Source: Leucoraja erinacea (Eukaryota). From it: a DNA stretch of 64,000 bases. The DNA lies in the NCBI RefSeq assembly GCF_028641065.1, contig NC_073407.1, forward strand, positions 11,346,001 through 11,410,000, in the 5' to 3' direction. The position numbers were made by a program, and so were the translations under genes. Shown here one piece after another: positions 43-63,014 of this stretch (position 1 is the stretch's first letter; each line of letters opens with the position of its first letter). The notes beneath the pieces are model-generated. The model saw only the letters and a list, made by a program, of their open reading frames with translations. It did not search any database and had not been told where the DNA came from.

Positions 43-445
43 GGCAGCACAGTGGCACAGCGGCAGGGCTGCCTCCTCACAGCGCCAGAGACCCAGGGTC
101 AATCCTGACCTCGGGGTGCAGTCTGCATGGAGTTTGTCCATTCCCCCTACGAGTCTGAAGAAGGGTCTCGACCCGAAACGTCACCCATTTCTTCTCTCCA
201 GTCTGTCCTGCTAAGTAGCTCCAGATTTTTGTGTCTCCCTTTGATCACATTGGTTTCCTCCGGGTGCTCCCGTTTCCCCCCCACCCTCCAAAGAAGTACA
301 GATTTGTAAGTTAATTGTCTTCTGTAAATTGCCCCTCAGGATGTAGGATGCACAAAGTGGGATAACATAGAACTAGTGATCGATGGTCGGCGTGGATTCG
401 GTGGGACGAAGGGCATGTATCCACCCTGTATCTCTAGACTCTAAA
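43..445 (+). mobile_element. HE1-type V-SINE interrupted by a PLE fragment (about 152-235)
   Basis: tRNA-like head with A/B boxes, V-domain (CCGGGTGCTCC..TTTCC..CCCAC..TCCAAAGA), CR1-like tail. Confidence 0.75.
155..182 (+). ncRNA. Minimal type I hammerhead ribozyme motif in PLE-derived repeat
   Basis: CTGAAGA-A-GGGT(CTCG)ACCC-GAAA-CG-TC: intact core, stem II, palindromic ACGU stem III and GUC cleavage triplet. Stem I is only about 2 bp, so activity is unproven. Confidence 0.65.
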
Positions 446-648
446 TAAATGCCAGTCGCAGGCAGATGGGACGTGTCGATGGGACATGTTGGCTGGTGTG
501 GGCAAGTTGGGCCGAAGGGTCTGTTTCCGCGTTGTAAGATTCTATGCCTCTCTAAATGTTGGCCATGCACCGAGATCCCATGTTTCAATGAAAGAAACAT
601 CTGGATCTAGTCCAGTCTAACACAGAACTGTAGCCAGCACGCAGTGGG

Positions 649-688
649 GAGAGAGAGAGGGAAAGAGAGAGAGAGAGAGAGAGAGAGA
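649..688. repeat. (GA)n microsatellite
   Basis: Read directly. Confidence 0.9.
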
Positions 689-829
689 CGGGTGATTAGC
701 TGTGGATCTTCTATGTTGCATGCTGCTCAATGGGAGTTCCAGTAACTGAAGTCAGTTCACAAGAAAGTAAGATGAAAATAACGATTTATCTTCTGGAAAT
801 GCAAATGGGATCTTCAAAAGCTAAAGCAG

Positions 830-1168
830 TGACCAAGGAACACAGGTTTACGGTGAAGGGGAAAAGATTTAATAGGAATCTGAGGGGTAACTTTTTCACA
901 AAAATGGTGGTGGGTGTGTGGAGCGAGCTGTCAGAGGAGGTAGTTGAGGCTGGGGCTATCCTAACGTTTAAGAAAAAGTTAGACAGGTACATGGATAGGA
1001 CAGGTTTGGAGGGATATGGGCCAAATGCGGGCATTTGGCCCATATCCCTCCAAACCTGTCCTATCCATGTACTAGTGGGACGAGTGTAGCATGACCCTGG
1101 GACTAGTGTAGCAGGGACATGTTGGCTGGTGTGGGCCGAAGGGCCTGTTTCCAGGCTGTATGACTCTG
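830..1168 (+). mobile_element. CR1-clade (HER1-like) LINE 3' end
   Basis: HRFTVKGKRFNRNLRGNFFTKMVVGVWSEL..., tail GGGCCGAAGGGCCTGTTTCC. Confidence 0.8.
987..1072. repeat. Perfect inverted repeat, 41 bp arms with a 4 nt spacer
   Basis: 987-1027 is the exact reverse complement of 1032-1072. Confidence 0.9.
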
Positions 1169-1554
1169 GGTGCAGGCTCCTGTGCAACGTCTAACCTTGG
1201 ATTGCAAGGACGGCATGTGAGTGCGGCACTCTAATCTCAGAGCTCGGCCCAGCAACTCCTGACCTTGGGAATCTTCCACTTGAACAATAACCACAACCTC
1301 GCCTCTCACCTTGCACCAGATTAGTGGGGAGCCTGTTGGCATGGAAACAAACCTGCTTTTATTGCCAGCACTTCCAAGATTAGACGAGGAACACTTTAAT
1401 CCTGGGTTTGATCCCTATTGTGTTTTTCCGCTTGCCCTCCACATCATGTGATCATCAACCACCGCCCAAGTGAATCTTATTGAACACAGAACTGTACAGC
1501 ACAGGAAGAGGCCCTTCGGCCCACAATGTCTGTGCCGAACACGATGCCTCGAAT

Positions 1555-1950
1555 TTAGATGATTGAGGGGGGATCTTATAGAAACTTACAAAATTCTTAA
1601 GGGGTTGGACAGGCTAGATGCAGGAAGATTGTTCCCGATGTTGGGGAAGTCCAGAACAAGGGGTCACATTAAGGATAAGGGGGAAATCTTCTAGGACCGA
1701 GATGAGGAAAACATTTTTCACACAGAGAGTGGGGAATCTGTGGAATTCTCTGCCACAGAAGGTAGCTGAGGCCAGTTCATTGGCTATATTTAAGAGGGAG
1801 TTAGATGTGGCCCTTGTGGCTAAAGGGATCAGGGGGTATGGAGAGAAGGCAGGTACAGGATACTGAGTTGGATGATCAGCCATGATCATATTGAATGGCG
1901 GTGAAGGGCCGAATGGCCTACTACTGCACCTATTTTCCGTGTTTCTATGA
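1555..1950 (+). mobile_element. CR1 LINE 3' end (young subfamily)
   Basis: RTEMRKTFFTQRVGNLWNSLPQKVAEASSLAIFKRELD; nearly identical to 8720-9047. Confidence 0.85.
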
Positions 1951-2264
1951 TAAACTGATCTCCTCTGCCTGCACATGACCCATACCCCTCTCTCTGTAAA
2001 GAAACTTGCCCCATAAATCTTCTTTAAACTTTTCCCCTATCTATATTTCTCTCCAAATGTCCTTTGAAAGCCGTAATTGTTTCTGTAGCTTCCACTGACA
2101 GCTCATTCCAGATCCGAACTACCCTCTGAGTGAAAGAGTTTCCCCCGAGCTCCCTGTTCAACCTCTCCTCTCTCACCTCAAGCCTATGCCCTCTATCCTG
2201 GGGATAAAGACTGTGAGCGTTCACTTCATCTGTGCTTCCTCGTGATCTTGTACACCTCAATACA

Positions 2265-60351: not shown

Positions 60352-60930
60352 AGGGCACAGTGCCGCAGTGGTAGAGTTACTGCCTTGCAGTGACAGAGAC
60401 CTGGGTTTAATCCTGACTACAGGTGCTGTCTGTGTGGAGTTTGTACGTTATCCCCGTGACTACATGGGTTTTCTTCGGGAGCTCTGGTTTCCTCCCACAT
60501 TCCAAAGACGTACAGATTTGTAGGCTGATTGGCTAGGTATAATTGTAAATTGTAAATTGTCCTGATAATGTTAGTGTGCGGGGATCGCTGGTCGGCGCGG
60601 ACTCAGTGGGCAGAAGCGCCTATTTCCTCGCTGTATCTCTAAACTAAAACTAAACTAAATGTGATGTTCACTTTATTTTTTGTTTAGAGATACAGGGCAG
60701 AAACAGGCCCTTCGGCCCATCGAGTCCTCGCCGACCAGCAATCCCCGTTACACTAGCACATGCTACACATTAGGGGCATTTACATTTTTACCGAAGCCAA
60801 TTAACCCACAAACCTGCACGTCTTTGGACTGTGGGAGGAAACCGGAGCACCCGGAGAAAACCCAGGCAGTCACGGGAAAGGGCACAAACTCCGTACGGAC
60901 AGCACCCGTATTCAGGATCGAACCCGGGTC
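60352..60930. mobile_element. Tail-to-tail inverted HE1 SINE pair (60352-60660 +, 60682-60930 -)
   Basis: Consensus matches on opposite strands, about 20 nt apart. Confidence 0.85.
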
Positions 60931-61281
60931 CGTGATTATATTGTATTGTTTCATAAACGTCCTGTTTTTAAATGTTCATCCATTATTCATAATGAATAGG
61001 CAATGCTGCTAACAGCCTGTGATCTGTGAGATAACAGGCTGTGTAGTTGATGTGATAGTGGTGAGGACTGACACAAATGCTTGGGCCCCTCAGGGCCACT
61101 GTAGCATTAGGATACAGGTAGGCATTTTATCATTGTTTAATAGTTTTATTTCAATCATTCGATCATGGCTGCTCTATCTCTCCCTCCTAACCCCATTCTC
61201 CTGCCTTCTCCGCAAGGCCCTGACACCCTCTGCTCCTACTGCGTTTATTAACCCATTGTGCTTCTTGTGCTTCCGCGGCAG

Positions 61282-61730
61282 AGTTAACCACAGTGCTTCC
61301 CACGAGCTCCACGGAGACGGGTAGCAGCACCAGCCCGCCGGTCACCGCGGTGACAAACAGCAGCGAGCAGCCGGTACAGCTGACGGCACAGAGCACGGTC
61401 CAGAGCCGAGAGAGCACGGCAGCCCCGGCAGCCCCGGAAATCTCCTGGACCCGCTTCAACATCGTGGTGCTGGTGGTCATCATTGCCGTGGTGGTCCTCC
61501 TCATGGGCTTCGTGGCGGGCGTCTACGTTTACCGCGAGTACCGCAACCGAAAGCTCAACGCCCCCTTCTGGACCATCGAGCTGAAGGAAGACAACATCAG
61601 TTTCAGCAGTTACCACGACAGCATCCCCAACGCCGACGTGTCGGGCCTGCTGGAGGACGACGGCAACGAGGTGGTCCCCAACGGACAGCTGACTCTCTCG
61701 GCCCCCATCACCTCCTCCTACAAGATATAA
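61282..61730 (+). CDS. MEGF9: MEGF9 terminal coding exon: S/T-rich stalk, transmembrane helix, cytoplasmic tail, TAA stop
   Basis: Acceptor cttcttgtgcttccgcggcag, phase 1, giving (E)[10 protein letters not shown]... Contains the TM segment [26 protein letters not shown] and the diagnostic MEGF9 tail [47 protein letters not shown]. Stop at 61728-61730. Confidence 0.97.
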
Positions 61731-62340
61731 AGCCAAGTTACGCGGGCCACGACAAGTGTGTAGGACCGGAGGGCGGACTGACTGCACCCCGTTGGTATAT
61801 TGCACCAGCCGCGCGCTCTGTGACATGAGAGCAGTGCAGAGATGGTGCGAGGCTTCACCGAGCTGAATGACGCCCCCACCCCACCCCCACCCCAGACGGA
61901 AGCCCGCAGCAAATGAATGGGGTCCTGCTTACACCATTCACTGGTGTAAAAACACCCCCAAAAATGAGTTTCTATTTTTGTACAAAGCTAAGATTCAATG
62001 ATGTCCAGGTTCAAGCCGTCTCCCAGTGCGGAGATGAGGGACCATTAATCAATGGACATCCCCTTCCCAGGACAGCAAGCAGGTCTCGGGCATTGCAATG
62101 CAACTGGAAAGACTTCAAATTCCTGTAAGGAAATAATTTTATAAAGACTATGACTGGAATGTACATTGAGGGCAAAGATTTCACAAGATGAGAAGCTCTT
62201 GTATTTTTTGTTTGTTTGTAAACTACAGACAGTTTCTAATGATTGCTGAGGGGAAAATGGCAATAATCGTGTTTACGGCCGATGTGCTTCCAGTATTGAA
62301 TGCATTGGGTCACGCAAGTGTGGTCCAGCCTCCTGCCCCA
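61731..62340 (+). other. MEGF9: Proximal MEGF9 3' UTR (end undefined)
   Basis: Repeat-free sequence after the stop, with U-rich tracts near 61970 and 62200. No canonical AATAAA seen, so the 3' end cannot be placed. Confidence 0.55.
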
Positions 62341-62452
62341 CTCACAGTGAACGTGGGAAGGAACTGCAGATGCTGGTTTGCACCGAAGATAGACACAAGG
62401 TGCTGGAGTAACGCAGCGGGTCAGGCAGCATCTCTGGAGGCAAAGGATGGGT

Positions 62453-62480
62453 GATGTTTCGGGCCGGGGCCCTTCATCAG
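62453..62480 (-). ncRNA. Hammerhead motif with canonical CUGAUGA core and covarying stem II (stem III degraded)
   Basis: Minus strand CTGATGA-A-GGGC(CCCG)GCCC-GAAA-CA-TC. Confidence 0.5.
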
Positions 62481-62881
62481 TGTCTTATCTCCGGGAGAGG
62501 AGGAGCTATTGCTGAATCCCAAGGCTAATGCTGAATGAATGGACGCTTTTAACAGGCTCACACCTGGTGAGGCCAGCTATCCAACTAACAGTAGATTCCT
62601 TAGCAAGAGCTAAGATCCAGGAATGCCGATTATAAACAGAAGCCTTAAAAAGTCCCCCTAACACGAGAGTTGTAAGCACAGATAGGGCCACAAAATACTT
62701 TGGTGCAATTGAATTTGCTGCAAAGAAACCTACAAGCTAGTCTCCTGAACAGTTTCTTTGAGTTAACATATGAAGAAGACCTTTCTCAAGCAGCAGCACA
62801 CTGTTCAAATACTCATGTCACATTCAGTCCCATTCCCTATCACTAGCCCCTGCGCCAGTCGTAAATCAAAGGTGGAACACG

Positions 62882-63014
62882 TGCAGGAAAGAACTGGAGA
62901 TGTTGGTTTAAAGCGAAGATAGACACAAAATGCTGGACTAACTCAGCGGGACAGGCAGCATCTCTGGAGAGAAGGAACGGGTGACGTTTTGGGGTCGAGG
63001 CCCTTCCTCAGACG
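62882..63014 (-). mobile_element. PLE-terminus-derived insertion with 13 bp TSD
   Basis: AAGGTGGAACACG at 62869-62881 and 63015-63027. Confidence 0.8.

Follow-up and report, generated by a model that had tools for sequence, protein, structure and literature searches.

Hammerhead-bearing repeats of Leucoraja erinacea are probably terminal stubs of Neptune-type Penelope-like elements

A 64,000-nt stretch of the genome of the skate Leucoraja erinacea (assembly GCF_028641065.1, NC_073407.1, positions 11,346,001 to 11,410,000; hereafter the window) contains numerous copies of a short repeat carrying a minimal hammerhead ribozyme motif. Sequence comparison suggests that these repeats very probably represent the terminal, pseudo-long terminal repeat (pLTR) portion of ~100-135 nt of Neptune-type Penelope-like elements (PLEs), inserted singly or as fold-back pairs and likely arising as abortive products of reverse transcription. 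Most of these stubs are likely dead insertion by-products rather than members of a self-propagating family of RNA circles, and the repeat is a genuine case, at very high abundance, of a PLE feature that is already known.

At locus L080, a near-complete PLE comprises, in this order, a truncated upstream copy, a hammerhead at 4065, the 5' region, the open reading frame (ORF) and a second hammerhead at 7911, and thus contains a hammerhead in both pLTRs. As the repeat runs directly into the 5' region and ORF of this element, it corresponds to the element's first ~100-135 nt, duplicated at the 3' end. Locus L077 encodes reverse transcriptase (RT) and C-terminal GIY-YIG endonuclease domains in a single ORF (RVT_1, E=5e-6; GIY-YIG, E=9e-4; both under the curated Pfam cut-offs), separated by a CX4CX2C linker, which fits the CX2-5CxxC motif described as defining the Neptune clade and shared with Nematis (PMC8557442). 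RT, endonuclease and linker are consistent with the Neptune-type origin put forward in the original prediction. Furthermore, the 5' motif of the hammerhead was identified a few hundred bases downstream in 19 of 25 loci containing the endonuclease fragment of the window, and an endonuclease is located within 900 nt upstream in 51 of 124 copies extended into the PLE 3' untranslated region (UTR). The main stub sequence types also occur attached to PLE 3' UTRs, and a first look genome-wide yielded 54,579 endonuclease and 4,255 RT candidates.

The L080 element also contains an upstream ORF of ~41 codons (4110-4240), the beginning of which lies in the repeat and which overlaps the main ORF at its probable start, and single-cell reads (runs X22 and X23) show a strong one-strand bias over the endonuclease end at L080:3700-3850. 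A divergent PLE with ~64% DNA identity is present at L079:8087-8672 (oriented); its own hammerhead was not found in the stretch examined, and a search for it in the loci analysed returned only the motif type described here.

To estimate abundance, a profile built from natural copies was run on the window and 59 spaced 10-kb stretches (654 kb in total); nucleotides are numbered by hammerhead position, with model column 4 representing C3 and cleavage occurring after column 31. The profile returned 309 matches, 59 of which are in the window, and none in reversed sequence. The 250 matches outside the window cover 4.0% of 590 kb, corresponding by extrapolation to ~0.93 million stub arms or ~4% of the genome, and the 26 intact cores found in these 590 kb extrapolate to ~97,000. 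A hard floor is provided by the exact 28-nt core, which occurs 42,503 times genome-wide compared with 0 occurrences of a reversed control pattern, bearing out the high copy number originally proposed. A minimal hammerhead descriptor had 55 matches, against 0 for reversed sequence. Core, stem II and ACGU are all intact in only 9 of 58 matches in the window, which contains the following copies and related features:

152-252, plus strand: solo stub with intact minimal core at 155-182 (GUC) and short 3' end
6045-6258: head-to-head fold-back pair, core reached by both arms
6326-6689: head-to-head pair and direct neighbour
7244-7684: decayed copy with upstream poly-C and internal repeats (7244-7414, minus strand), and fold-back pair (7540-7684)
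11169-11376: head-to-head pair of a long and a short arm
12686-12808, plus strand: solo stub with long tail, GUU site and 3-bp stem II
12992-13713, minus strand: 5'-truncated Neptune-type PLE with GIY-YIG end, 3' UTR, hammerhead and tail
13517-13684, minus strand: GIY-YIG endonuclease fragment with CxxC
13292-13436: fold-back pair nested in the PLE fragment
13093-13120, minus strand: hammerhead of the PLE fragment
13812-14011: head-to-head pair with joint inside stem II
16714-16869, plus strand: young stub with core at 16765 (UUCG loop, GUU), a short inverted tail piece on its 5' side and a 13-bp target-site duplication (TSD; 16714-16726 and 16857-16869)
21589-21701, plus strand: copy running into the pyrimidine-rich 3' UTR of an older subfamily
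26028-26235: head-to-head pair
31412-31562, minus strand: second PLE endonuclease fragment, decayed
32016-32213: head-to-head pair without 5' core
33327-33512: head-to-head pair
35339-35427, plus strand: solo stub with intact core at 35342
45154-45285, plus strand: young solo stub with long tail and intact core at 45157 (GUU)
45779-45949: head-to-head pair, one arm beginning exactly at the cleavage site
49045-49272: head-to-head pair, decayed
56240-56403, plus strand: stub with intact core at 56298 and an inverted tail fragment in front
62355-62480, minus strand: solo stub with C-G closing pair, U at position 7 and non-palindromic stem III (ACAU)
62883-63013, minus strand: solo stub with 13-bp TSD
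10714-11028, 55826-56194 and 61224-61730: frames with exons of a laminin-EGF, single-pass transmembrane host gene

The window copies are located between exons of this host gene, which we take to be MEGF9-like. On a small sample, 21 of 29 solo copies are on the plus strand, which is the sense strand of the host gene exons; in these 29 copies, sense hammerheads in introns are not depleted.

As originally reported, cores begin exactly at 155, 12687, 16765, 35342, 45157 and 56298 on the plus strand and at 62480 on the minus strand, with the layout C3-G8-A9, extra A, stem II, GAAA and CG-U-H. The GUC site and ACGU palindrome ascribed to them are not general, as the copies at 12687, 16765 and 45157 contain GUU and the copy at 62480 contains ACAU; furthermore, stem II of the copy at 12687, the core of which stands, has an A-A mismatch as its closing pair. 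The repeat does terminate the GIY-YIG PLE fragment at 12992-13713 (Pfam GIY-YIG, E=0.0018, under the curated cut-off), which carries a hammerhead as predicted, but the core of this hammerhead is broken at G5. The suggested comparison with Rfam models gave no support, with no hammerhead family detected in the window at E<=1; the Rfam matches obtained were miRNA-like hairpins arising from fold-back pairs and were rejected.

The arrangement of copies was analysed in a larger set of 792 matches in 1.45 Mb, which includes 80 stretches centred on exact cores and is hence non-random. This set contains 467 solo copies, 258 copies in head-to-head pairs and 48 with a direct neighbour; the corresponding numbers in the random-DNA subset (249 matches) are 137, 94 and 13. 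TSDs of 9-16 bp flank 49 of 406 solo copies compared with 0-5 in shuffles. The 3' ends peak at model columns 103-106 and 132-134, giving two ends 30 nt apart, and fold-back pairs (n=129) carry the tail on one arm, with 64 long and short combinations, 3 pairs of two long and 7 of two short arms. Partial tandems, inverted pLTR copies, an optional tail of 30-40 bp on one arm and TSDs match the insertion signatures published for endonuclease-containing (EN+) PLE units (PMC8557442, PMC3846280), and the 3' ends, located ~100-130 nt beyond the hammerhead, agree with the two sites at which RT is reported to start internally in the anole Poseidon element PAc (PMC11167929).

The 5' ends show a different landmark. 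Among solo copies with body (n=413), 277 reach column 6 or lower, and only 12 start at the cleavage site (columns 30-34) compared with 14.6 and 9.4 estimated from neighbouring columns, indicating no enrichment. Among copies with a 5' core (n=497), 97 run on into the PLE 3' UTR and a further 23 into pyrimidine-rich sequence (97-120 in total). Of the 42,503 exact cores, 33,429 follow GT, 26,132 AGT and 20,960 CAGT. This pile-up of 5' ends 1-7 nt upstream of the core indicates that most templates end there. TCAGT just upstream of the core is retained in 3' UTRs that otherwise cannot be aligned, to an extent exceeding the requirement of stem I, and a pyrimidine tract is located just upstream of the core in all subfamilies. 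TCAGT fits an initiator consensus. PLE pLTR promoters have been reported (PMC2377424, PMC3846280). In addition, 272 cores genome-wide follow a short re-copy of their own 6-10 initial nt, which suggests re-priming at a template end; 35 of the first 100 cases listed represent one identical 7-nt duplication. Eleven fold-back pairs are centred on a TCAG-T-CTGA micro-palindrome. A splice acceptor formed by the pyrimidine tract and CAG at the edge of stem I, as in D. virilis, was considered and rejected: 1 of 83 ORF-to-hammerhead copies was short, representing a deletion, and no splice-acceptor joint was identified among the read joints listed.

We propose that the PLE protein would nick the target and prime reverse transcription at an internal site, either ~100 or ~130 nt downstream of the ribozyme, as shown in vitro for the anole PLE (PMC11167929). 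On most templates, RT would run out just 5' of the core, most likely, at about an even chance, because the transcript starts at the conserved initiator-like TCAGT. The short cDNA would then be joined to the target or snap back to form an inverted arm. In master elements the hammerhead would have weak activity, either as a dimer or assisted by protein, and genomic stubs would decay neutrally.

Clustering of 297 of 358 spanning copies yielded five subfamilies, among which 0 of 19 core and stem columns are variable compared with 20 of 68 downstream columns (p=0.005). The core is thus better conserved than its downstream sequence across PLE subfamilies, as anticipated, which suggests selection in master elements. 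A raw comparison of core and flank conservation (5% vs 11%) was set aside in favour of this test due to core-seeded alignment bias and A-richness. Changes between subfamilies inside the ribozyme affect loop II, U-A to U-G, C17 to U17 and A1.1 to G1.1, all of which are tolerated. The CUGANGA, GAAA and UH core of the PLE minimal type I hammerhead is present, and all five subfamilies share the extra base that separates positions 9 and 10.1, the G10.1-C11.1 pair and the ACGU palindrome (15.2-16.2, no stable stem III). The motif is therefore consistent with the proposed minimal, dimer-type type I hammerhead with a 2-bp stem I, for which catalysis would be uncertain. The predicted variability of position 7 was recovered in part: it departs about twice as often as A6/A9 (44/470 vs 42/940, p=0.0005), and is A in 426 of 470 copies.

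Contrastingly, the stem II covariation described in the original prediction was not borne out. Double changes at the four pairs numbered 5, 2, 4 and 5 in 561 copies, compared with 7.9, 2.7, 2.8 and 6.2 expected by independence, and in 12 window copies the observed value was matched or exceeded by 261 of 500 shuffles. Compensatory stem covariation was accordingly scored as absent, with no pair judged to have double changes above independence, and stem II shows only the one-sided U-A to U-G subfamily change; the subfamilies may be too close to show any. The catalytic G12, which is part of a CpG, is kept in 386 of 514 copies, compared with 390 and 418 of 514 for other CpG Gs, and this similar decay makes the genomic copies look neutral. 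The hammerhead is thus likely under selection only in master elements.

Several observations weigh against the origin proposed here. TSDs were seen in only 12% of solo copies, and the 5' end zone is broad (0 to -7) rather than a single base. A cap-derived G at the 5' junction was significant in a sample (18/29), but counts over the whole genome failed to reproduce it (A 2,007, G 1,829, T 1,336); a count by eye of the first 100 matches listed gave G41 T46 C13, and this signature is unsupported. RNA reads from four raw-read runs (fragmented, poly(A) and single-cell) showed passenger coverage with no common start or end. A loose, adapter-like read end on the antisense side at stem II was taken as an artefact. 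In a nearest-neighbour model the hammerhead fold differs from the predicted minimum, with P(stem II) <=0.02. Furthermore, the domains point to a Neptune-type PLE through motifs rather than a tree, and some older sequence clusters lack an upstream endonuclease in our sample (0/8), which leaves room for non-autonomous lineages.

It is possible, but less probable than a transcript start, that the same PLE by-products arise by RT block or snap-back at a protein-bound pyrimidine tract or at the TCAG-T-CTGA micro-palindrome, as the breadth of the 5' end zone, the eleven pairs centred on the micro-palindrome, the upstream pyrimidine tract in all subfamilies and the unconfirmed cap-G signature would suggest; however, the retention of TCAGT across unalignable 3' UTRs exceeds what stem I needs, and the 272 junction re-copies suit a template end. 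That the motif is a non-working ribozyme in this genome, kept as a promoter or RT-binding sequence, is rather unlikely. The 2-bp stem I, the GUU site of the youngest subfamily, the missing covariation, the dispensability of the anole hammerhead for insertion in vitro (PMC11167929) and the predicted folding would fit such a role: the dimer fold is predicted at -6 to -7 kcal/mol compared with a minimum of -28 to -33 kcal/mol, and the hammerhead is outcompeted by a helix with downstream pyrimidines, so that any activity would depend on protein or a partner RNA, as has been reported for the anole PLE. However, every published feature of minimal hammerheads is matched and subfamilies change only at tolerated positions, and protein-assisted cleavage has been reported for the anole hammerhead (PMC11167929).

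The retrozyme-like system envisaged in the original prediction, in which dimeric hammerheads would cut the multimer transcripts of a non-autonomous family and the PLE enzyme would re-insert the circularised products, is very improbable for the bulk of stubs. Numerous intact cores, local arrays with units of 39, 44, 94 and 135 nt, a PLE 5'-region tandem at L163 and the proposed derivation of animal retrozymes from PLE pLTRs (bioRxiv 10.64898/2026.07.22.740005) speak for it. However, copies are solo or head-to-head, with only 125 + 146 = 271 close head-to-tail pairs in the whole genome, a number obtained with a looser pattern at gaps of 62-123 nt and including some pairs counted twice, and <1% of cores in such pairs, units are neither permuted nor enriched in 5' ends at the cleavage site, no cleavage-site joint was found among the read joints listed (poly(A) and single-cell libraries), and G12 decays neutrally. 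With few close tandems and no permutation at the cleavage site, the bulk falls outside the retrozyme definition as given in PMC7229834 and bioRxiv 10.64898/2026.07.22.740005. Only small local composite families outside the window remain candidates for a retrozyme-like reading.

Such composites were identified at C25:29.2-32.2 Mb (L276-L282), where one junction of a 94-nt unit accounts for 11 of 100 pairs listed, at 9 loci. The 7 loci inspected contain 2-5 tandem 94-nt hammerhead units with a common inverted-arm junction and PLE-type outer ends; their flanks mostly differ, with one flank common to L277 and L278, and the TSD-like matches are imperfect as well as short. The junction was absent from all other loci examined (~2.04 Mb in total). 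Short arrays consisting almost wholly of hammerhead or of a 135-nt unit are located at L283, L284 (C35), L287 (C20), L285 (C38) and L286 (C28), with units of 44, 44, 39 and 135 nt, and represent natural cis-dimer candidates; the 44-nt arrays cluster on C35 and C20. In addition, L163:600-2550 is a tandem array of the ~200 nt at the PLE 5' end, the units of which begin either at the edge of the core or a few bases beyond the site of cleavage. A minority of stubs could be nascent retrozymes, with the 94-nt (C25) and 44-nt (C35, C20) composites re-copied by the Neptune enzyme and landing near their source, although we consider this unlikely. The C25 pattern is also explained by ectopic gene conversion, acting on fragile palindromes of distal regions, and the centre of the fold-back is found in two sequence backgrounds. 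Local hopping is described as a trait of DNA transposons (PMC12477816, PMC12477314), and no report of it for PLEs was found in the literature searched; if true, local hopping by a retroelement would be new in that literature and would imply nuclear, co-transcriptional reverse transcription.

Minimal hammerheads have been reported in metazoan PLE pLTRs, mostly as dispersed single motifs from truncated PLEs and as opposite-strand pairs, including in Neptune, Poseidon and Xena elements of fish (Cervera & De la Pena 2014, PMC4209133). The skate motif shares with these, as far as they are described there, the type I core, the additional base lying between 9 and 10.1, G10.1-C11.1, the palindromic loopless stem III and the presence in both pLTRs. 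Unlike that set, its stem II comprises 4 bp, and stem I comprises 2 bp as in D. virilis Penelope. With at least 42,503 exact and, as extrapolated, ~1e5 intact cores, its copy number is above the 4,000-9,000 given for coelacanth and Xenopus. The Neptune-type linker distinguishes the element from Poseidon PAc and the other EN+ PLEs compared, and its sharp accumulation of 5' ends immediately upstream of the ribozyme has no counterpart in the available descriptions (PMC8557442, PMC3846280, PMC11167929). Animal non-LTR retrozymes, which were also found in the one chondrichthyan genome of a preprint, are likewise described as non-coding, PLE-related and equipped with a type I hammerhead (PMC7229834; bioRxiv 10.64898/2026.07.22.740005), but form head-to-tail tandems giving circular RNAs, a description for which only the small local composites qualify. 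Literature searches, which did not cover Dfam and Repbase, returned nothing specific on hammerheads in PLEs of sharks or skates, and these databases or the preprint supplement may already list the family.

As this kind of element is already known, its presence is of low surprise and its scale is the useful part. With ~0.9 million stub arms, the skate genome provides a large natural record of insertion products of PLEs. For most cDNAs the end lies just 5' of the ribozyme and not at the cleavage site, which argues against cleaved RNA as the main template, in agreement with the in vitro result reported for the anole element (PMC11167929). The local tandem composites, in turn, could reveal how retrozymes arise from PLE ends.

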